Numbered from the stretch's first letter, positions 2,480 to 50,751 are shown. The stretch: DNA of 57,505 nucleotides from Bacteroidales bacterium (GCA_004557315.1 SFEH01000006.1:1-57505), one strand, 5' to 3'. Notes: generated from the sequence alone by a model not told the origin. Made by a program: numbers and translations.

Positions 2480-2890
2480 ATGAAGAATCGAATTTTTACA
2501 AACAGAACTCGAGTTTTCTCCGACTCGGTAAAGATGGAGACAGAGACAATGTTTTATGAGGATGGCATCATCAAGACCTATCCTTTGGCTTACGAGTTGG
2601 GACAGCAGATCACTGCCAACGGCTCGACGGTGACGATGAAGGCGAAGGTGACGGTGGATTCCGACGGCAATACCAGCGTGATGCCTTACAGACGTGACAG
2701 CGGACAACGCTACCGCCACCTCTTCAAGACTCGCCACGGCGAGGTGAAGGAGACCAACGAGGACGTGATAGTGAAGTTCCAGTTCAGCAAGTCGCAAGGC
2801 AGATGGAAGATCTGTGATGACCTGGAGACAGAGACCGATGACATTCTTTCTTTTCTTGAAACAACTAACGACATCAGAAAATGGCAGTAA
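2480..2890 (+). CDS. hypothetical protein (136 aa; the start could instead be the ATG at 2534)
   Basis: The ORF is in the same orientation as its neighbours and its stop overlaps the primase ATG by 10 nt. No family recognised. Confidence 0.5.
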   Translation: MKNRIFTNRTRVFSDSVKMETETMFYEDGIIKTYPLAYELGQQITANGSTVTMKAKVTVDSDGNTSVMPYRRDSGQRYRHLFKTRHGEVKETNEDVIVKFQFSKSQGRWKICDDLETETDDILSFLETTNDIRKWQ

Positions 2891-5247
2891 ACGTGATTTT
2901 GTATGACGCTAAGCGTCGGAAGATTGCAAGAGCGGTGACATCGCGCGAGGAGTATATCTCCTTGCGTGACTCTGCCCAGAACCGCTCGGCTGAGAAGAAG
3001 AAGATGGTGCAGATGAACTATTGCCTCGTATCGCCTTCGGGCGACAAGGGCGACTTCCCTCTGCGCGGTGCTTCGACGGTGGGCAACTCGGTGGGCATGG
3101 ACATCGACCTTACTGCCGATGTGGCAGAGAAGGAGAAGCAGACACAGGAGATCGGCAACCTCATCTTGTCGAAGCGCGACGAACTTGGCTTGCTCCTGCT
3201 CGAACGCAGTGCGACCAAGGGCTACCATATCGCCTTCCGCCGCCATGCAGGGATGAGCAACGAGGAGAACCTGCGTTGGGCAAGCGATCTGCTGGGCGTG
3301 GAGTTTGACAAGGGCGCAAAGGACTCGACGCGCGTATTCTTCACTCCTCCTTCTGACAAGCTGCTCTTCCTCGACGATGAGATCTTCGACCGAAGCGTGG
3401 TGGAAGACGGCAATGCAGAAGTGGTCGTTGAGACAAAAGACACTACTGAATCGTCAAAAAACACTGCTGAAAGTAAAAATAACACTGACATGTCAGCGTT
3501 TTCATCGGAGGAAAAGAACTACTTGGGCATTCCGTATGGCGAGATCATCGGCAAATACTGGGAGATGTTCTATGGCGGTGCAGAGCCAGTGAAGTCGAAT
3601 CGCGACACATTGACCTACGAGCTTGCCAACGTGCTGAAGCACATCTGCGGCTACGACCGTGGCTTGCTGGCAGAGGTGATTCCTTGCTACGACGGCTTCC
3701 CAGAGGCAGAGAAGATGAAATGTATCGACTCGGCACTGAGCGGCAAGCGCACGCAGATGCCGCGACGGCTGCGCGACGTGTTGGCTGCATTGCGTGCTCA
3801 GGCAATCAATGGCAACGGTGGCATTGACAAGCTCGGAATCGTGGAGGCACTCGACGAAGCGATGGGGCAAGACGAACTGTTCCACTACAACCAGATACCA
3901 GAGGACGTGATGACACAGGGCTTGAAGGAGTCGATCGACGCGGCTGGCCACACGCTGGTGATGCCTGCCATCACCGCCATCTGCCCTGCCATCGGCGCAA
4001 GGGCAACAGGCGTGAAGCTCGACGTGCACGGCAAGGCCAATACGCTGAATCTGATTGCCTACATATCGGGCGACTTTGCTTCGGGCAAGGGACAGATTGA
4101 TGACATCGTGAAGGCATGGATGAGCGAAGACATCGCATTGGCAGAGATGTACAACCAGCAATGGGCGGAATATGCCGAACAGAAGAAGCAGTGCAAGAAC
4201 AAGAAGGAGCAGCCAGTGGAGCCGAAGTTCCCGAAGGTGTGGCTGACACTCAACAACACCACTGCCAACCTTGCCGAGGAACTGTCGAACATGAACGGCA
4301 AGCACGCCTTTTCGTTCACTCCCGAAGCCGACGTAGTGAGCCTGAAATGGAAGACCTCGGTGAGCGACTTCTCGACGATGATTCGCCAGAGCTACGACGG
4401 CTCGTCGTATGACCGTGAGGCACGCAGCGTGGAGGCGGTGAACGTGCATATTCCGCGACTGCTGTGGAACGTGGTGATGTGCGGCACGCCCGATGCCCTC
4501 TATCGCGTGGTGAACAACTACACCGATGGCTTCCAGAGCCGCATTGCCTTGGCTCGCACGCCCGACAATACCTTTGCTCGCCTCGATGACAACCCTGCCC
4601 ATCTCACCGACCTCCAGAAAGAGCGCATCGAGCAGGTGAGCCACCTTCTGCCATTGCTCAACGGCACGATCGTATTGCCAAAGCTTGAGGCGCGAGGCAG
4701 GGCTTGGCTCGAAGAGGTGCGACTGGTGACGATGAAGGACGATGACCGCGTGATGGCTCGCCAGAGATTCCGCATCTGCGTGACGGCTCAGCGCATGACG
4801 TGCTGCCTGATGCTCGCGAGTGTTTGCGCCTCGCTGATCGGGCAATATGGCGCGAAGAGTGCAGAAATGCGACTGAAGAGCGACCCGACTCTGTGGCAGA
4901 AGATGATCGAGCAGATGCAGACGCAGAGCTACATGGATATGTTTGGCATCATCGCCGATTCGCTGCTCGACAATGCCATGTATTTCTTCCGCGACCGCAT
5001 CGAGAGTGCTTTCAATGCGAGGACGTATGCTGGCGGTCAGGCATTGGGCAACATGCGTGTGCGCAAGGGCAAGAACGACACTATCTTCGAACGTCTGCCA
5101 GAGGTGTTTGGCTTTGCCGAGGCTTTGGCTCAGAGCGTGAAGGTGAAGAGCAACGGTGTGACGCAGAATGCCGTACAGCAGATGCTGAAGAACTGGATGA
5201 AGCAAGGGCTGATCGTGGCGACAGAAGGAGGATACAGGAAAGCTTAA
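2881..5247 (+). CDS. primase-helicase-like replication protein (VirE-N/BT4734-like N-terminal domain + DUF3987-like region)
   Basis: It is 788 aa. The N-terminus (SATKGYHIAFRR...TRVFFTPP) looks like the BT4734/VirE-N primase-like domain. The central part (GDFASGKGQ...NNTTANLAEEL...AFSFTPEAD) looks like DUF3987. Recognition is by eye only. Confidence 0.6.
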   Translation: MAVNVILYDAKRRKIARAVTSREEYISLRDSAQNRSAEKKKMVQMNYCLVSPSGDKGDFPLRGASTVGNSVGMDIDLTADVAEKEKQTQEIGNLILSKRDELGLLLLERSATKGYHIAFRRHAGMSNEENLRWASDLLGVEFDKGAKDSTRVFFTPPSDKLLFLDDEIFDRSVVEDGNAEVVVETKDTTESSKNTAESKNNTDMSAFSSEEKNYLGIPYGEIIGKYWEMFYGGAEPVKSNRDTLTYELANVLKHICGYDRGLLAEVIPCYDGFPEAEKMKCIDSALSGKRTQMPRRLRDVLAALRAQAINGNGGIDKLGIVEALDEAMGQDELFHYNQIPEDVMTQGLKESIDAAGHTLVMPAITAICPAIGARATGVKLDVHGKANTLNLIAYISGDFASGKGQIDDIVKAWMSEDIALAEMYNQQWAEYAEQKKQCKNKKEQPVEPKFPKVWLTLNNTTANLAEELSNMNGKHAFSFTPEADVVSLKWKTSVSDFSTMIRQSYDGSSYDREARSVEAVNVHIPRLLWNVVMCGTPDALYRVVNNYTDGFQSRIALARTPDNTFARLDDNPAHLTDLQKERIEQVSHLLPLLNGTIVLPKLEARGRAWLEEVRLVTMKDDDRVMARQRFRICVTAQRMTCCLMLASVCASLIGQYGAKSAEMRLKSDPTLWQKMIEQMQTQSYMDMFGIIADSLLDNAMYFFRDRIESAFNARTYAGGQALGNMRVRKGKNDTIFERLPEVFGFAEALAQSVKVKSNGVTQNAVQQMLKNWMKQGLIVATEGGYRKA

Positions 5248-5415
5248 TAGGGTTATGAGGTTATGAGGTTTTGAGGTTATGAGGTTATGAGGTTATGAGG
5301 TTATGAGGTTATGAGGTTTTGAGGTTATGAGGTTATGAGGTAGCTTCGCGCCGACGATGAACCTAAAAACCTCAAAACCATAAAACCTAAAAACCTCAAA
5401 ACCATAAAACTAAAA
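5248..5415. repeat. bipartite octamer-repeat element (GGTTATGA array / GCTTCGCGC centre / ACCTNAAA array)
   Basis: 5251-5340 holds 11 tandem octamers (9 GGTTATGA and 2 GGTTTTGA) with no C. The centre is TAGCTTCGCGCCGACGATGA (5341-5360). 5361-5410 is (ACCTAAAAACCTCAAAACCATAAA)x2 with no G. Confidence 0.9.
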
Positions 5416-5420
5416 AAATT

Positions 5421-5837
5421 ATGAAAATCTATCTATATCGAAAAAGAATAAAGGGTGAGAGCACCGATGGGGTGCTGATTGACCAACGCGGCAACCGCAT
5501 CTGCGACACTGCCGAAAACACGCTGACGATGCTACCTGAGGGGAAATATCGTCTGGAACTGAAGAAATACAAGAAGGGCAACTATCGAGCTGCCTTCGCT
5601 ACGCCAATCGATGCAAATGGCGAGAAGCAGCAAGGGTGGCGCGGCTCGGGATTCATCATCCACGGCAACGGAGTGTATGGGCGAGGACTTGGCAGCAACA
5701 TCATCGTGGGCGACTATCTTGTGCCAGGCGTGGTGACCCACAGTGCGAAACACTTCACCCGACTGATAAAACGCCTCGAAAAGGCAGAGAAGCGCAAGAC
5801 AGAAGTGGAAATAGATGTGAAGGTGTTAAGGTGTTAA
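5421..5837 (+). CDS. DUF5675-like protein
   Basis: It is 138 aa. The pattern TDGVLID..G..ICDT.E......P.G.Y ... FIIHGNG ... IIVG ... G.V.S...F..L matches my memory of DUF5675. Its stop TAA (5835-5837) lies inside a GTGTTAAG repeat unit. Confidence 0.6.
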   Translation: MKIYLYRKRIKGESTDGVLIDQRGNRICDTAENTLTMLPEGKYRLELKKYKKGNYRAAFATPIDANGEKQQGWRGSGFIIHGNGVYGRGLGSNIIVGDYLVPGVVTHSAKHFTRLIKRLEKAEKRKTEVEIDVKVLRC

Positions 5838-6045
5838 GATGTTCATTGACGCTACATAAGACTCTGCACAAGACTAACACTACTGAAGACCTTGAACACC
5901 TAGATGTGAAGATGTTAAGGTGTTAAGGTGTGAAGGTGTTCATTGACGCTACATAAGACTCTGCACAAGACTAACACTACTGAAGACCTTGAACACCTTA
6001 ACAAGCGAAGCGCCTTAACACCTTAACACCTTAACACCTTAACGC
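5815..6045. repeat. tandem duplication of the 63-bp core element with GTGTTAAG/CTTAACAC arms
   Basis: Cores at 5838-5900 and 5935-5997 are near-identical to 1933-1995. GT-only octamers lie at 5815-5838 and 5901-5938. AGCGAAGCGC is at 6003-6012. (CCTTAACA)x4 at 6012-6043 is perfectly complementary to both 5820-5838 and 5914-5930. Confidence 0.9.
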
Positions 6046-6108
6046 CTCCGTTTGCCGACAAAATGGGAGGATTGGCTGAAAAAATTTGCATCGTATTGGG
6101 CAAAAGCA

Positions 6109-17980: not shown

Positions 17981-18113
17981 AGTTTAGGCTTATGGATTCT
18001 TGGCTTTAGCATCAATTTCCTTAATCCAAACATCTTGCTATCACCTATATATTTGTCCTATTCCTGCATTCATCATCAACAAGCCTCGATCCATAAACCC
18101 TAAACCTTAAACC
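17981..18113. repeat. imperfect inverted repeat with GGTTTA/GGCTTATGG-type arms
   Basis: The left arm AGTTTAGGCTTATGGATTCTTGGCTTT (17981-18007) is compared with the reverse complement of the right arm AAGCCTCGATCCATAAACCCTAAACCTTAAACC (18081-18112). The loop is ~73 nt. It lies between the GntR operon and the ybjQ operon. Confidence 0.7.
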
Positions 18114-18141
18114 TTTGTTTGCCTATTAGACGCAACGACTT

Positions 18142-18507
18142 TCAGTTTTGTTGCATCAATAGTGATAATTTTTCTGAAATTTTTTCAGTTGTGATTCCAA
18201 GGAGCTTCATTTCGCGTGCGATAAGCGGCAGTTGCTCCTCATAGAAACGCTTTGAACGCATCTCCTGAATCTTGTCGATAGCGCCATCGGCGAGGAAATT
18301 GCCCTTACCTCTCTGGCTGTAGATGATCTCGCCTTGCAGCAGTCGTTCGATGGCACGCTGCACGGTGTTAGGGTTGACCTGCATCTGCATCGCCAGTTCG
18401 CGCACCGAAGGAATCTGTTCATCGGTCTTGACCTCTCCTCGCAATACTCGGTCGCAGATTACATCGACAATCTGCATGAATATCGGTTGATTATTCTGAA
18501 ATTCCAT
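18142..18507 (-). CDS. GntR-family (YtrA-like) transcriptional regulator
   Basis: It has a winged HTH (IPSVRELAMQMQVNPNTVQRAIERL) and is 122 aa from MEFQNNQP. The longer ORF-track start at 18606 reads through a repeat arm and is rejected. Confidence 0.85.
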   Translation of the reverse strand: MEFQNNQPIFMQIVDVICDRVLRGEVKTDEQIPSVRELAMQMQVNPNTVQRAIERLLQGEIIYSQRGKGNFLADGAIDKIQEMRSKRFYEEQLPLIAREMKLLGITTEKISEKLSLLMQQN

Positions 18508-18554
18508 TGTTATCTGTTTTATGTTTGTAAAAATCCTATTCCAAATCATCTTTA

Positions 18555-18642
18555 TTTTAGGTTTTAAGGTTTTATGGTTTTGAGGTTTTCTGTCAGCGCG
18601 AAGCACCTTATAACCTCATAACCTTATAACCTTACAACCTTA
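18555..18642. repeat. bipartite octamer-repeat element (same family as 5248-5415, opposite plus-strand orientation)
   Basis: 18555-18589 is TTTTAGGTTTTAAGGTTTTATGGTTTTGAGGTTTT (no C). The centre is CTGTCAGCGCGAAGCA. 18606-18642 is CCTTATAACCTCATAACCTTATAACCTTACAACCTTA (no G). Confidence 0.9.
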
Positions 18643-19581
18643 TTTCGCCTGCTTGCGGCAGATCTGTCGGTAGAAGAGATAAGCCAAGCCTATCAGGATC
18701 AACGGAGTGGCGTAGCAGACATATGTCATGACGTTCAACACAGTTATCACATTGCCCATAATGAGGTTGTTCAATTCTTCCTGCGACACATTGCCTGCCA
18801 TTTGACTGATTTCTGTTCCGAACACCACTATCGAACAGATTATCATCGTGATAGCGAAGACCACTGACACTGCGAAATAAATAGCTATGGTCTTGAGCTG
18901 TCCGTTGGTACGGAAGAGCATATTGACGCACATATAGGCAAAGAGCTCGCAGAGGGTGATGACTGGAGTGAACCTCATAAGGGTGCTGACGGTCGTGAAG
19001 AACAGCGTAAACAATTCAGGAGCAAGCTGCTCATTTGCAGCAACTTCCTGCATCTGATACATTGTCGATTCCCAATTTACGCCGTTCATTACTACCGAGA
19101 ATTCATCGAGATTCTTGGCAGGGAAGAGAATCAGGAACGGATCGGTGAGCCAGTCAAGTGCAGGAAACATGTACCAGCATGTGAGCATCGTCAATGAGTG
19201 GCAGATGAGATAGATTACGAAGACTGCAGCTGCTCCAAGTGCGTATTCGGCAAGCATCACTACATACTTCTCGGCCGAAGTGCCTGGGATTGAGAGGTAG
19301 TTGGTAGCACTGCGAGGGTTGGTGAACTTCTGATGAAGAAGTGTCGTAACCACAAAGACCATCGCGAGCTGAGCATAATTGAAGAACGAGCCGATGAACT
19401 TCGACATGATGACCGGAGTTTCAGGTTCGAGGCTCTCGATATGGAAGATGTTCTTCGATAAGAAGAAAAGCAGCACACAGCAGACATAGATAATGGCTAT
19501 GAGCGCCATTGTCAACGAGAACTTGTTCTTGTTGATTGCCCAGTCGTATCTGATCAGCGAAAGTATTCTATTACTATTCAT
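18640..19581 (-). CDS. polytopic membrane protein, probable permease partner of the adjacent ABC ATPase
   Basis: It is 313 aa with multiple hydrophobic helices. It sits between the ABC ATPase and a YtrA-like GntR gene. No family recognised. Confidence 0.65.
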   Translation of the reverse strand: MNSNRILSLIRYDWAINKNKFSLTMALIAIIYVCCVLLFFLSKNIFHIESLEPETPVIMSKFIGSFFNYAQLAMVFVVTTLLHQKFTNPRSATNYLSIPGTSAEKYVVMLAEYALGAAAVFVIYLICHSLTMLTCWYMFPALDWLTDPFLILFPAKNLDEFSVVMNGVNWESTMYQMQEVAANEQLAPELFTLFFTTVSTLMRFTPVITLCELFAYMCVNMLFRTNGQLKTIAIYFAVSVVFAITMIICSIVVFGTEISQMAGNVSQEELNNLIMGNVITVLNVMTYVCYATPLILIGLAYLFYRQICRKQAK

Positions 19582-19590
19582 ATTGTTTTC

Positions 19591-19688
19591 TTTTTTAGGT
19601 TTTGAGGTTTTATGGTTTTGAGGTTTTGAGGTATTCTGGCAGCGCGAAGCTCCTTATAACCTTATAACCTCACAACCTAATAACCTCA
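19591..19688. repeat. bipartite octamer-repeat element (third family member)
   Basis: 19591-19633 is TTTTTTAGGTTTTGAGGTTTTATGGTTTTGAGGTTTTGAGGTA (no C). The centre is TTCTGGCAGCGCGAAGCT. 19652-19688 is CCTTATAACCTTATAACCTCACAACCTAATAACCTCA (no G). Confidence 0.9.
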
Positions 19689-19690
19689 TT

Positions 19691-20512
19691 TTATCCAAAT
19701 ATCTTCTTAAACGCGTCGGGGCGCTTGACCACTGCACTGAAAAGCAGCTTGATGTCAACCGGCATCTCTTCGCCAGTCTTGTTGACCATCACGCTCCAAG
19801 CGCCTCTGAGATTCTGTTCGCTATAAAGCACCTCATCACCCTCCTCGGCAACTCCGAAACAGAGCTTCTGCCCGATTTCCTGAAGCGATGCGCTGAGCAG
19901 CACGCCATCGTTCTCAAGTATCACCACATAGTCGATAAGACCTTCGAGATCGTCCACCTGATGAGTTGAGATGAGCACTGTTGAATTGTCGCTGATCGAA
20001 CTTGCCACGATGCGGCGGAAGCTTGATTTCGAAGGGATATCCATTCCGTTGGTTGGTTCATCCATAAACAAATATGGAGTGTTGCAAGCCAACGACAGCG
20101 AGATGAGCGCCTTCTTCTGCTGTCCGAGCGACATCAGAGTGATCTTCTTGTCGGTCGGAACCTCAAACTCCTTGAGAGCATTCTCGAGCAGATCGTAGTC
20201 GAATGTCGGATATAGCGGTGCTGTGACATCGGCAAGCTGCTTGATGGTGACGTCGAACAATACCTCGTTCTCCGGCACCAAGCGGATCTGCTGCTGCATC
20301 TCTGCCTTGCGTTCGCGTGGGTCATAGCCTCCCACCTTGTATTCTCCTTCGCCAAGCAATGCTCCAGTCAGAATCTTGAGCAATGTCGATTTTCCTACTC
20401 CATTCTTTCCAAGCAAACCATAGATATGCCCCTCTGGCAATTGGAGGGAGATCTTCTTCAGAACCGGCTGATATGTAGTGTAGCCATAGTTCAAGTCATT
20501 TGTCTGTATCAT
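19691..20512 (-). CDS. ABC transporter ATP-binding protein
   Basis: It has Walker A GKNGVGKSTLLK, signature MSLGQQKKALISLSL and Walker B LFMDEPTNGMD. Confidence 0.9.
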   Translation of the reverse strand: MIQTNDLNYGYTTYQPVLKKISLQLPEGHIYGLLGKNGVGKSTLLKILTGALLGEGEYKVGGYDPRERKAEMQQQIRLVPENEVLFDVTIKQLADVTAPLYPTFDYDLLENALKEFEVPTDKKITLMSLGQQKKALISLSLACNTPYLFMDEPTNGMDIPSKSSFRRIVASSISDNSTVLISTHQVDDLEGLIDYVVILENDGVLLSASLQEIGQKLCFGVAEEGDEVLYSEQNLRGAWSVMVNKTGEEMPVDIKLLFSAVVKRPDAFKKIFG

Positions 20513-23742: not shown

Positions 23743-23895
23743 CCTTCGCTCATCCTACGAGATGACATCGGAGATTGTCCACCGATTGTCCATCGATTGT
23801 CCATCGATTGTCCATCGTTTCGATGGAGAACTAATGGAGAATTGATGTATAAATAATGGGGAAAATATGTAAATAATTCGAAGGATGAGCGAAGG
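23743..23895. repeat. long imperfect palindrome centred at ~23819 with 11-bp tandem repeats
   Basis: A perfect 14-bp outer stem pairs CCTTCGCTCATCCT (23743-23756) with AGGATGAGCGAAGG (23882-23895). The inner part has four tandem GATTGTCCA(T/C)C units (23773-23816) facing GATGGAGAACT and AATGGAGAATT (23822-23843). Confidence 0.85.
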
Positions 23896-24035
23896 ATGTA
23901 CGGAAGAAGGACTGAAGAAGGATGGAAGAAGAATGGAAAATGGCAGAAAGGGTGCAGAGGAATCGTAAAATACGAAATAATAAGATTAGGATCGTGATTT
24001 TTTTATAAAAAAGCTTGAAACATCGTTTTTTTGTT

Positions 24036-43601: not shown

Positions 43602-43736
43602 GGAAGATAAAGGAGATAAAGAAGTTAAAGAAGATAAAGACAAATGTGTTAGTCTATAGCATCATTATCTTTAGCTTCAGTAATAGAACAAACAATGCAA
43701 CTATTGTCTTTATCTTCTTTATCTCCATTATCTTCC
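43602..43736. repeat. inverted repeat with purine-rich ~9-nt periodic arms
   Basis: Arm 1 is GGAAGATAAAGGAGATAAAGAAGTTAAAGAAGATAAAGACA (43602-43642). The reverse complement of arm 2 (43705-43736) is GGAAGATAATGGAGATAAAGAAGATAAAGACA. The two match apart from one 9-nt unit and one mismatch. Confidence 0.9.
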
Positions 43737-49217: not shown

Positions 49218-49622
49218 ATGCAGATTGAAGCGGAAGAACTGGCGGAACACGGCATACGTCCGACCTCTGTGAGGATTCTTGTGATGCGTGCCATCATGCA
49301 GCGCAAAGGCGCATTCTGCCTTTATGACATCGAAGCTGATGTCCCAACCCTCGACCGTTCGAGCATCTTCCGTGCCCTTCGCCTCTTCACTCAACATCAC
49401 CTGCTCCACGAGATCGACGATGGCTCTGGCTTCTGCAAATATTGCCTATGCCAATGCGAAGACCATGATCATCACCTCAACCACGTGCATTTCACATGCA
49501 TCAAGTGCGGAAAGACTTTCTGCATTGAAGACCAGAAGATTCCAGTCGTCGCTCTCCCTGAAGGTTTCGTGCAGGAAGAAGCAGAATATGTCATCAAGGG
49601 CATCTGTCCCGACTGCAAGTGA
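49218..49622 (+). CDS. Fur-family metalloregulator (Fur/Zur/PerR not distinguished)
   Basis: It is 134 aa with a winged HTH (RPTSVRILVM...SIFRALRLF), an HHLxH motif and CxxC...CxxC (CIKCG...CPDC). It lies 6 nt after the TlpA-like gene. Confidence 0.85.
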   Translation: MQIEAEELAEHGIRPTSVRILVMRAIMQRKGAFCLYDIEADVPTLDRSSIFRALRLFTQHHLLHEIDDGSGFCKYCLCQCEDHDHHLNHVHFTCIKCGKTFCIEDQKIPVVALPEGFVQEEAEYVIKGICPDCK

Positions 49623-49723
49623 TAAGAAAATATTATGATTGCAAGTGCGCTATTTTGCTCTTGGAGTATAAGGCTGAAACAACCTCCATACTTAGCACTT
49701 GTAAACATAGTGTTTAAAGACAA

Positions 49724-49766
49724 TAAACACCATACTTACGGTTGCTAAGTATGGTGTTTATTTTTT
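49724..49766. terminator. bidirectional intrinsic terminator between the convergent fur-family gene and trxB
   Basis: A 15-bp perfect stem pairs TAAACACCATACTTA (49724-49738) with TAAGTATGGTGTTTA (49746-49760). T6 follows on the plus strand and an A-rich flank lies on the other side. Confidence 0.8.
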
Positions 49767-49770
49767 GTTA

Positions 49771-50712
49771 TCAAAGTGTCTGTAGATAACGCTCTGCATC
49801 CATGGCTGCATGACATCCAGAACCAGCGGCAGAGATAGCTTGACGATAGAGTGGATCGGCTACATCGCCAGCAGCAAAGACACCTGGAATATTGGTGGCT
49901 GTGGTCGGATGCTTGACCTTGATATATCCTGCCTCATCACATTCTACGGCATGACGGAATACCTCTGTGTTTGGATGATGTCCGATGGCAAGGAAGAAAC
50001 CGTCGATATCGATGTCGAAACGCTCTTCATGATCAGTGCCCTTGCCTCGCACGAGATGTGCTCCTTCAAGTCCGTCTTCACCAAACAAGCCTTCGGTCTG
50101 GCACTCCCAGAGAATCTCGATGTTTGGAGTATCCTTGACACGCTGGGCACTCTTCTCACTTGCACGGAGAACATTGCGGCGCACAATCAGATAAACCTTG
50201 CGGGCAAGACCTGCGAGATAGGTTGCCTCTTCACAGGCTGTATCGCCACCACCTACTACAGCAACAACACGCTTGCGATAGAAGAAACCATCGCATGTGG
50301 CACAAGCAGAAACACCCATACCTGCATATTTCTTCTCGTCGTCAAGTCCAAGATACTTGGCAGAAGCACCAGTAGCAATGATGATGGTCTGTGCCTCGAT
50401 CACTGTGCCATCGTCAACATAGGCACGATGTGGCTTACCTGCATCTTCAGCGAAATCGACCTTAGTGATAAAACCGCTGCGAATATCAGCACCCAGCTTC
50501 AGGGCGTGATTGCGAATATTGTCCATGAGTTCAGGACCAGTAATGCCTTCTGGATACCCAGGGAAATTCTCAATCTCGGTGGTTTGCGTAAGCTGACCTC
50601 CCGAGAGCAAGCCCTCATAAACAACAGGTGCGAGACCGCTGCGGCAAGCATATATTGCGGCAGTATAACCAGCAGGGCCACTGCCAATAATCAAAACTTT
50701 TACCATAGACAA
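49771..50712 (-). CDS. trxB: thioredoxin-disulfide reductase
   Basis: It has GSGPAGYTAA (FAD), the redox-active CATCDG and GGGDTACEEA (NADPH). Confidence 0.95.
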   Translation of the reverse strand: MSMVKVLIIGSGPAGYTAAIYACRSGLAPVVYEGLLSGGQLTQTTEIENFPGYPEGITGPELMDNIRNHALKLGADIRSGFITKVDFAEDAGKPHRAYVDDGTVIEAQTIIIATGASAKYLGLDDEKKYAGMGVSACATCDGFFYRKRVVAVVGGGDTACEEATYLAGLARKVYLIVRRNVLRASEKSAQRVKDTPNIEILWECQTEGLFGEDGLEGAHLVRGKGTDHEERFDIDIDGFFLAIGHHPNTEVFRHAVECDEAGYIKVKHPTTATNIPGVFAAGDVADPLYRQAISAAGSGCHAAMDAERYLQTL

Positions 50713-50751
50713 TGTTATTTAGCAATAAGATATTTTGTTTGTTTATAGTTG

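Follow-up and report, generated by a model that had tools for sequence, protein, structure and literature searches.

A bipartite octamer repeat element with a conserved core between genes of an uncultured gut Bacteroidales bacterium

In Xanthomonas and Nostoc, the GGGNATC heptamer repeats favour the gaps that separate aligned ORFs (open reading frames), where a sense-strand array lies at most 50 bp after a stop codon or an antisense array at most 50 bp before an ORF; four units are preferred, 70–75 convergent pairs occur per genome, unit number varies among close relatives, and no function was found (Rehm et al. 2015, PMC4692102). Each Xanthomonas genome holds about 180 arrays, at loci reported to be unusually stable (PMC4692102). 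The TAACTGA heptamer repeats of Beggiatoaceae, cyanobacteria and five Bacteroidetes are oriented, supply stops in every frame and can run over the upstream gene's own stop codon (MacGregor 2015, PMC4679880). Together with the long simple sequence repeats of Mrazek (2007), in so far as these are cited in PMC4679880, they make up the closest described kind to the element reported here. This element occurs three times in a 57,505-nucleotide stretch of Bacteroidales DNA (GCA_004557315.1 SFEH01000006.1:1-57505; "the window" denotes this whole stretch), each time as two inverted octamer arrays around a GC-rich core in the gap between two genes. The best-supported assignment of the family is to the already described, functionally unexplained kind of 6–9-nt intergenic arrays, as a composite simple-sequence repeat element; it is an octamer variant of that kind with a conserved core, and it fails the features of repetitive extragenic palindromes (REPs) and bacterial interspersed mosaic elements (BIMEs), of CRISPR arrays, of terminators and of mycobacterial interspersed repetitive units (MIRUs).

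A homologous family between same-strand genes

In the sense of transcription, the general layout is a stop codon, a C-free GGTTRTRA array, the core GCTTCGCGC followed by YRNC, a G-free ACCTNAAA array and an A-rich tail. A scan of metagenome contigs returned four loci: the copy 2 locus of another strain, one chance match, and two new pig-gut loci. The first of the new loci (L149) lies between trpB and trpE, and the TAA of its first octamer is the trpB stop codon; the second (L151) separates an ACT-domain gene from the gene that follows it. As they come from three copies in 57.5 kb and two loci from one metagenome scan, our figures for copy number and orientation are lower bounds. The five independent copies align with 80% mean column identity, an invariant core and a common unit order, ACCTCAAA-ACCATAAA, and their 8-nt units keep invariant AGGTT and AACCT cores. 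Their agreement in core and unit order indicates that the five copies are homologous and did not grow independently in place, which bears out the family proposed in the first-pass annotation of the window and rules out array growth in place by slippage alone. Each of the four chromosomal copies has four left units and measures about 95–105 bp; copy 1, at about 170 bp, is an expanded version of the family element. A covariance model built from the five copies scored their sense strands at 103–114 bits and their antisense strands at 48–64 bits, and a scan of the window with this model found no copy beyond the known three.

At each of the five loci the two flanking genes are on one strand (DUF3987/DUF5675, ABC ATPase/313-aa protein, 313-aa protein/GntR, trpB/trpE, and ACT-domain gene/next gene). 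The left arm starts 0–5 nt after the upstream stop codon, or holds that stop codon inside its first unit (L149), at every locus, and the right arm ends no more than about 20 nt from the next ATG in four of the five. Left flanks end in TAA, TAG, TGA or TTA; the right ends read TAAA(G) in four of five copies, and between these flanks the element reads GGTT ... AACC. The uniform polarity relative to flanking genes, first claimed for the three window copies, now extends to five of five loci. The parts of the three window copies are as follows.

Copy 1, 5' arm: 5251..5341, plus strand, C-free octamer array of GGTTATGA x9 and GGTTTTGA x2, plus GGT
Copy 1, GC-rich centre: 5342..5359, plus strand, AGCTTCGCGCCGACGATG, given also as AGCTTCGCGCCGACGATGA
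Copy 1, 3' arm: 5360..5416, plus strand, G-free, A-rich array (ACCTAAAA-ACCTCAAA-ACCATAAA)x2.4
Copy 2, 5' arm (transcription sense): 18605..18643, minus strand, GGTTGTAA GGTTATAA GGTTATGA GGTTATAA GG
Copy 2, centre: 18590..18604, minus strand, sense strand GCTTCGCGCTGACAG
Copy 2, 3' arm: 18555..18589, minus strand, AAAACCTC AAAACCAT AAAACCTT AAAACCTA
Copy 3, 5' arm: 19652..19688, minus strand, GGTTATTA GGTTGTGA GGTTATAA GGTTATAA GG
Copy 3, centre: 19633..19651, minus strand, sense strand A GCTTCGCGC TGCCAGAAT
Copy 3, 3' arm: 19592..19632, minus strand, ACCTCAAA ACCTCAAA ACCATAAA ACCTCAAA ACCTAAAA

Copy 1 (5251-5416, plus strand) occupies the whole gap between a DUF3987 gene (ORF 2881-5247, 788 aa, by Pfam match; its stop codon TAA, 5245-5247, is followed by TAG) and a DUF5675 gene. 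Its 5' arm begins 3 nt past the DUF3987 stop codon with 11 octamers (5251-5338), and GGT extends the array to 5341. Tandem Repeats Finder gave this arm a period of 8, 11.4 copies of GGTTATGA, 95% matches and a score of 168; positions 5251-5341 contain zero C, and GGTTTTGA makes up units 3 and 9, spaced 48 bp. The description of this arm in the first-pass annotation, with nine units of one type and two of another in a C-free tandem 3 nt after the stop codon and with the 48-bp spacing, is confirmed by the sequence and by Tandem Repeats Finder. A TGA in each unit places stops in all three frames, and in copy 1 only, the units form a chain of overlapping ATGAGGTTATGA mini-ORFs (ATG-AGG-TTA-TGA); most units of the other copies have no ATG. 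The core GCTTCGCGC (5343-5351) is the same in five of five copies and has GCGAAGC within its reverse complement. The 3' arm repeats with a period of 24 in 2.4 copies (period 8 in 7.2 copies), has no G and carries ACCTNAAA seven times. A G-free second array closed by an A-run had been noted here and was found, with the distance corrected: the A-tract (5412-5418) ends 2 nt, and not 10 nt, ahead of the ATG of the DUF5675-like gene at 5421, and the last ACC unit stops about 18 nt before that ATG. The two arms are inverted, being 76–82% complementary in the pairings listed. The string GGTTNTNAGGTT would be expected 0.04 times in the window; it is present 25 times, and 24 of these occurrences fall within copies 1–3.

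Copies 2 (18555-18643) and 3 (19592-19688) sit either side of the middle gene in a minus-strand operon that a Pfam scan resolved into an ABC ATPase (19691-20512), a 313-aa protein (18640-19581), which our naming of the operon makes a membrane protein, and a GntR regulator (18142-18507). The 5' arm of copy 2 directly abuts the TAA stop codon (18640-18642) of the 313-aa gene; its centre contains the 10-mer TCGCGCTGAC, which also occurs in array modules of related Bacteroidales, and about 60 nt separate the copy from the likely GntR start codon. The 5' arm of copy 3 begins 5 nt past the ABC-ATPase stop codon (19691-19693), and its 3' arm ends about 15 nt ahead of the ATG of the 313-aa gene. The arms of both copies have a period of 8 in 4.4–5.1 copies by Tandem Repeats Finder. 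Both copies lie where the first-pass annotation had placed them, with GCGCGAAGC on the plus strand at 18596-18604 and 19642-19650.

Two further features of this operon were observed. A heptamer array, (AAGGTTT)x3, lies on the minus strand at 18094-18115, about 25 nt past the GntR stop codon, and its unit number differs in contig L143. A conserved motif, GATGATTTGGAA(A)TAGGA, is shared by relatives upstream of the GntR gene (window 18520-18545, minus strand; L142 1405-1430; L152 9945-9970 and 10965-10990; L155 1183-1205) and may be an operator or leader signal of the GntR-regulated operon. In element-free alleles the same motif also lies upstream of the 313-aa gene; at one junction copy 3 replaced it.

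The first-pass annotation had allowed that these low-complexity tracts might be assembly artefacts. That explanation is excluded: copy 1 is present in L144 and L145, copy 2 in L142, L143 and L148, and copy 3 in L146 and L147, all independent metagenome assemblies, and unit order or number varies among them. Because independent assemblies carry each copy with small differences, the element is real. Four of these contigs (L144, L145, L146 and L147) begin or end inside octamer arrays; the elements thus fragment assemblies, and pattern scans of assembled data under-count them.

Other collections were also searched. A scan of a genome collection with GGTTNTNAGGN{0,4}GCTTCGCGC used too loose a pattern, all 119 rows being chance matches in GC-rich coding DNA. 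Scans of viral contigs with the core plus arm and with the right-arm signature found no match, and a looser viral scan for GGTTNTNAGG x3 picked up arrays broadly of this kind, with no family member among them. In the IMG/VR viral contigs L003 (4846-4998) and L018 (8848-8957), stop-to-start fillers consist of GGTTATAA/GAGGTTAT arrays followed by ACCTCATC/ACCTCAAA or AAATTC arrays; neither has a GC core, and L003 scores 54 bits with the family covariance model. The same construction principle is thus found in phages. No paper turned up when the literature was searched for the octamer strings.

Turnover at operon junctions

Natural strains carry and lack the element at the same junctions. In contigs L142 and L143 the 313-aa protein is identical and copy 2 is kept, while copy 3 is absent and a 65-nt plain spacer stands in its place. 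A relative whose 313-aa ortholog is 79% identical (L152) lacks both copies 2 and 3 and has the same plain spacer as L142 and L143 at site 3, which indicates that the empty state at this site is ancestral. In a more distant relative (L155, 61% identical) both junctions are empty. At the trpB-trpE junction, a relative whose TrpE is 91% identical has a gap of 18 nt, and another, at 84%, has one of 25 nt. Unit content varies as well: in L142, L143 and L148 copy 2 carries an additional right-arm unit, its right arm counting four or five units by strain, and copy 1 shows different unit orders in different assemblies. Orthologous loci therefore occur both with and without the element, and, to judge from these alleles, the element is dispensable and was recently gained or lost.

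The same two junctions hold unrelated arrays in other lineages. Both are occupied in contig L154 by inverted arrays of 150 nt, purine-rich and pyrimidine-rich, and in L153 by TAATTGA heptamers with a GC-containing centre after them; L156 has TGAAACC heptamers at one. In a common relative (L158–L161), a bipartite element of 168–190 nt lies between trpD and trpC, with a length that varies by strain.

Contigs L158–L161, about 21 kb each and from a related Bacteroidales species, are dense in heptamer arrays, among them TTCACTC, CATTCTT, TAATTCA in 10–16 strain-polymorphic units and AACCAAC x9.7. They also carry an AAAAGTG/TTTTCAC inverted pair between convergent genes, a recurring module (AGTGAAR)n-AAA-TCGCGCTGAC, and a GC-rich palindromic module resembling a REP, TCGGGCGCATTACCGCCCGA, repeated within spacers. 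Their operon has no trpF.

Comparison with described repeats and candidate explanations

The first-pass annotation recognised no named repeat here. Precedents do exist: the element agrees with the GGGNATC repeats in where it lies and in its preference for four units (PMC4692102), and it bears a resemblance to the TAACTGA repeats (PMC4679880). With the former it shares short-period arrays between aligned ORFs, a G-containing array that follows or overlaps the stop codon, with its complement ahead of the next ORF, inverted (convergent) pairs able to form stem-loops, housekeeping neighbours and variable unit number. It differs in its 8-nt unit with GG tracts only and no predicted G-quadruplex, in the conserved GC-rich core between its arms, in its low apparent copy number, in its phylum, Bacteroidota, and in being gained or lost between strains. 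With the TAACTGA repeats it has in common the intergenic position, the orientation, three-frame stops, overlap with the upstream stop codon, unit-step insertions and deletions between strains, and occurrence in few Bacteroidetes; moreover, ortholog L153 carries TAATTGA arrays, one base from TAACTGA. The TAACTGA repeats are single direct arrays by start codons that are not predicted to fold, whereas our element consists of two inverted arms around a core and has its anchor point at the stop codon. Head-to-tail repetition with a period of 8, the placement at five of five loci, and four left units with unit variation place it among the 6–9-nt intergenic arrays; the G-quadruplex capacity of the GGGNATC subclass is absent from it by ViennaRNA.

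MIRUs, described by Supply and co-workers in 1997, are reportedly intercistronic repeats in operons that keep one orientation, vary in copy number between strains and contain small ORFs overlapping stop and start codons. Their units are 40–100 bp long and are not inverted arms. The likeness lies in the in-operon placement, the single orientation and the strain polymorphism, with mini-ORFs chained in copy 1 only; the 8-nt units and inverted arms found here set the element apart from MIRUs. MITEs (miniature transposable elements with inverted repeats) of the Correia type, also called Neisseria miniature insertion sequences (NEMIS), are inverted repeats of about 100–150 bp that are co-transcribed, form RNA hairpins and are present or absent between strains. 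Their terminal inverted repeats are defined and come with a TA target duplication; they number in the hundreds of copies and are processed by RNase III; neither target duplication nor high copy number is shown for our element. REPs are described as 20–40-bp palindromes that bear a GTAG or CGTC tag, number in the hundreds and are linked with REP-associated tyrosine transposases (RAYTs) (PMC3733652). Like our element, REP/BIME repeats are modular, hairpin-forming intergenic mosaics, often inside operons, and they are co-transcribed and able to stabilise upstream mRNA; relative L158 joins its arrays with a GC-rich palindromic module. The arms of our element are instead octamer arrays of 35–90 nt, the aligned copies have no conserved GTAG or CGTC, and no transposase-type Pfam match was found among the window ORFs scanned.

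Folded as RNA, each copy gives a long hairpin interrupted by a purine-purine mismatch at intervals of about eight bases, with minimum free energies of -26 to -61 kcal/mol and, for copies 1–3, z-scores of -5.2 to -6.75 against shuffled sequences. The periodically mismatched hairpin that had been suggested is thus thermodynamically real in computed folds. Selection for pairing, by contrast, came out negative or inconsistent by three measures: i) in RNAalifold the two variable pair columns pair in only three of five copies each, the covariation term is +1.48, and no compensatory changes occur among the five aligned copies; ii) permutation of unit order did not consistently weaken the fold; and iii) sense and antisense stabilities are about equal, whether the fold is of RNA or of DNA. 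The stem is not followed by a U-tract, the sense strand having an A-tract there, and no terminator-like site was found at any copy, which rules out an intrinsic (Rho-independent) terminator. Rfam returned no match at gathering thresholds, and in E-value mode it gave only eukaryotic microRNA-precursor models at 20–34 bits, against thresholds of 53–200 bits; the 8-nt units are contiguous and without spacers, so that a CRISPR array was also rejected. In keeping with the first-pass annotation, which did not recognise the element as CRISPR or attC, no match of Rfam, CRISPR or attC type was found. Arm order is regular beyond the family, the G-containing arm coming first in 13 of 13 inverted array pairs surveyed; the sole C-first exception is a weakly complementary 11-mer locus in a divergent gap, in the window and its L152 ortholog, and counted by family the order is about 7 to 1 G-first. 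The L153 arrays and the site-2 array of L156 are not significantly structured (z near 0 or positive).

Taken together, we tentatively favour a reading, to which we give slightly less than even weight, in which the element is a tolerated, dispensable, co-transcribed and structured non-terminating spacer between cistrons, with at most a modulating effect and no dedicated regulatory role. New copies would arise by copy-and-paste or recombination of an existing element, a step to which the homology in core and unit order points, and the arms would then gain and lose units by slippage, as the strain polymorphism attests. Lying between same-strand genes, at or over the upstream stop codon, the element would by its position be co-transcribed with them. 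Its first arm would present stops in all frames and its second a G-free, A-rich leader, both legible in the sequence, with any effect on expression conjectural. The arms are computed to pair into a mismatched hairpin, which, having no U-tail, should not terminate transcription and would bring the upstream stop codon near the downstream start. At most, the element might modulate mRNA stability or translation of the downstream gene, and it would be kept only in the orientation and places in which its transcript is harmless.

Several points weigh against this spacer reading. Co-transcription and the fold in vivo are inferred, and copy-and-paste is a presumed mechanism. Filled and empty sites are not related by clean insertion, about 39 nt being replaced and 16 nt lost at site 3, and no clear target-site duplication was seen in the filled/empty comparisons. 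The different array flavours at the same two junctions in three lineages could mean that these junctions need such an element, which would speak for a function. The polarity is statistically marginal, with a 1/16 chance that the other four loci match the first, and with about 80% of window gaps lying between same-strand genes, finding five of five loci in such gaps is not significant.

A selected RNA element is the strongest rival, which we consider unlikely. The hairpin would couple or gate translation, a terminating ribosome opening the A-rich pad for a start independent of a Shine–Dalgarno (SD) sequence, and/or would act as an exonuclease barrier or a block to Rho loading. The span from stop codon to near the next start, the polarity uniform at five of five loci, the stable hairpins that are not terminators and the G-free, A-rich second arm all speak for it, as do the unrelated bipartite arrays (L154) and arrays (L153, L156) at the same two junctions and the G-arm-first order of all 13 inverted pairs, which would fit a rule that the C-rich arm never emerges unpaired. 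Against these stand the absence of the element beside an identical flanking protein and in close orthologs with short plain spacers, and the roughly 60 nt between copy 2 and the likely GntR start codon. The pairing data are no kinder to it, given the variable pair positions and missing compensatory changes, the inconsistent unit-order permutations, the equal sense and antisense stability, and the unstructured arrays of L153 and of L156 site 2.

We regard as doubtful a MITE-like or REP-like transposable element, whose arms would be transposase-binding terminal repeats, whose targets would be TAA or A+T-rich sites and whose polarity would follow from insertion. The copies are homologous and have a defined length, every chromosomal one with four left units, which would suit such an element, and so would presence/absence polymorphism, inverted arms (76–82% complementary in the copy 1 pairings), the TAA/TAG/TGA/TTA left flanks with TAAA(G) at four of five right ends, and one copy on a putative island. 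A clean target duplication was not seen, however, as the right-hand TAAA is inseparable from the last array unit, and filled and empty alleles differ by replacement plus deletion. The Pfam scan of window ORFs placed no transposase near any copy within the window, the REP tag GTAG/CGTC is absent save for CGTC on the opposite strand of copy 1, and the apparent copy number is low (four loci in the metagenome scan, one of them by chance, and none in the viral scans).

A bolder proposal, in our estimate improbable, is that these arrays are portable intercistronic cassettes for an SD-independent bacterium, supplying all-frame stops, a stop-to-start stem and a G-free, A-rich landing pad, with a G-first rule across phyla that would avert Rho-dependent polarity. 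The C-rich arm, which resembles a Rho-loading site, would never be unpaired, so that no Rho-dependent polarity would arise inside operons. If this were true, the G-arm-first order would be a general rule, as seen in all 13 pairs here and implied by the Xanthomonas convergent pairs.

It is very unlikely that the two arrays serve as separate single-strand platforms for S1, a Csp or CsrA-like protein or the 3' tail of 16S rRNA, the hairpin being incidental. Periodic 8-nt units with invariant AGGTT and AACCT cores would suit such binding, and the related fillers in phage contigs, L153 and L156 are one-sided arrays without a complementary partner. The first arm (GAGGU/AAGGU) resembles a Shine–Dalgarno sequence and the second (ACCUC/ACCUU) an anti-Shine–Dalgarno sequence; this likeness covers 4–5 nt, set against what we take to be the Bacteroidetes 16S tail, and we keep it as a minor rival only. 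All 13 inverted pairs are complementary and G-first, and independent platforms need neither property; a candidate binding protein was not identified. The same idea was put forward for the TAACTGA repeats (PMC4679880).

Least probable of all, and close to negligible, are G-quadruplex or i-motif arrays, which would explain the four-unit preference (chromosomal copies have four full units and a terminal GG, giving five GG tracts, and in Xanthomonas this preference is tied to G-quadruplex formation, PMC4692102), for with GG tracts only and 6-nt loops no quadruplex is predicted in either arm or the whole element by the G-quadruplex model of ViennaRNA, whose energy is about +15 kcal/mol, against -26 to -60 kcal/mol for the competing hairpin.

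Host, island, other arrays and significance

The host is, to judge from its proteins, an uncultured pig-gut Bacteroidales bacterium. For the window UvrA and the L149 TrpE, the closest named sequences come from uncultured Bacteroidales metagenome-assembled genomes at 72–79% identity, including Candidatus Cryptobacteroides sp., with Coprobacter and Barnesiella at 65%. The first-pass annotation had looked towards Prevotella, an assignment that these UvrA and TrpE relatives do not support. It had also described the element as shared between a mobile element and a chromosomal operon. Copies 2 and 3 do lie in an operon; mobility of the DUF3987 island around copy 1 is plausible only. No integrase was found for the island in the window, and it gave no PHROG matches, no plasmid matches, one weak phage match and no viral-contig matches.

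Two occurrences of a second bipartite octamer flavour, at 1865-2050 and 5813-6047, are direct repeats that bracket the DUF3127/DUF3987/DUF5675 cluster and could mark the island ends. They consist of GGTGTTAA/GATGTGAA arrays, a 60-nt spacer, and ACACCTTA arrays interrupted by AAGCGAAGCGCC; the second contains a 97-bp internal duplication, and the DUF5675 stop codon lies within a GGTGTTAA unit. Upstream of the first, in an 879-bp gap after ORF 938-1600, lies a 10-mer array, (TTCTCTCGCT)x3.6, at 1707-1742.

Besides these two, the other repeat flavours in the window are at 23773-23938 and 43602-43736. The former comprises three adjacent 11-mer arrays (GATTGTCCATC x4, ATGGAGAAnTA x4 and GGAAGAAGGAT x3), the C-containing arm first, within an 826-bp divergent gap between an ASD1-domain gene and the next operon, and it is also found at the end of L148. 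An 11-mer array pair also lies in a divergent gap in L152 (5688-5852), the 79%-identical relative, and looks like the same locus by gene order. The array at 43602-43736 is an inverted 9-mer pair, (GAAGATAAA)x4 and (TCTTTATCT)x3, 89% complementary and 65 nt apart, between a TrmA-like methyltransferase gene and uvrA; its hairpin has a computed energy of -48.5 kcal/mol (z -6.1). Finally, two overlapping inverted repeats of 28–40 nt, 78–82% complementary and with 7-nt loops, lie at 49677-49773, in the 187-nt gap between ORFs 49218-49622 and 49810-50748.

In practical terms, arrays of this sort break short-read metagenome assemblies and can alter gene calls at ORF ends. Short-period intergenic arrays anchored at stop or start codons are now known in Xanthomonas, cyanobacteria, Beggiatoaceae and gut Bacteroidales, with no function shown in any. 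To these the present case adds natural strains with and without the element beside an identical flanking gene, unrelated unit sequences that appear repeatedly at the same two operon junctions in related lineages, and a consistent G-arm-first order. Natural alleles that carry and lack the element, repeated use of the same junctions and the G-first order make the function of this repeat kind testable.

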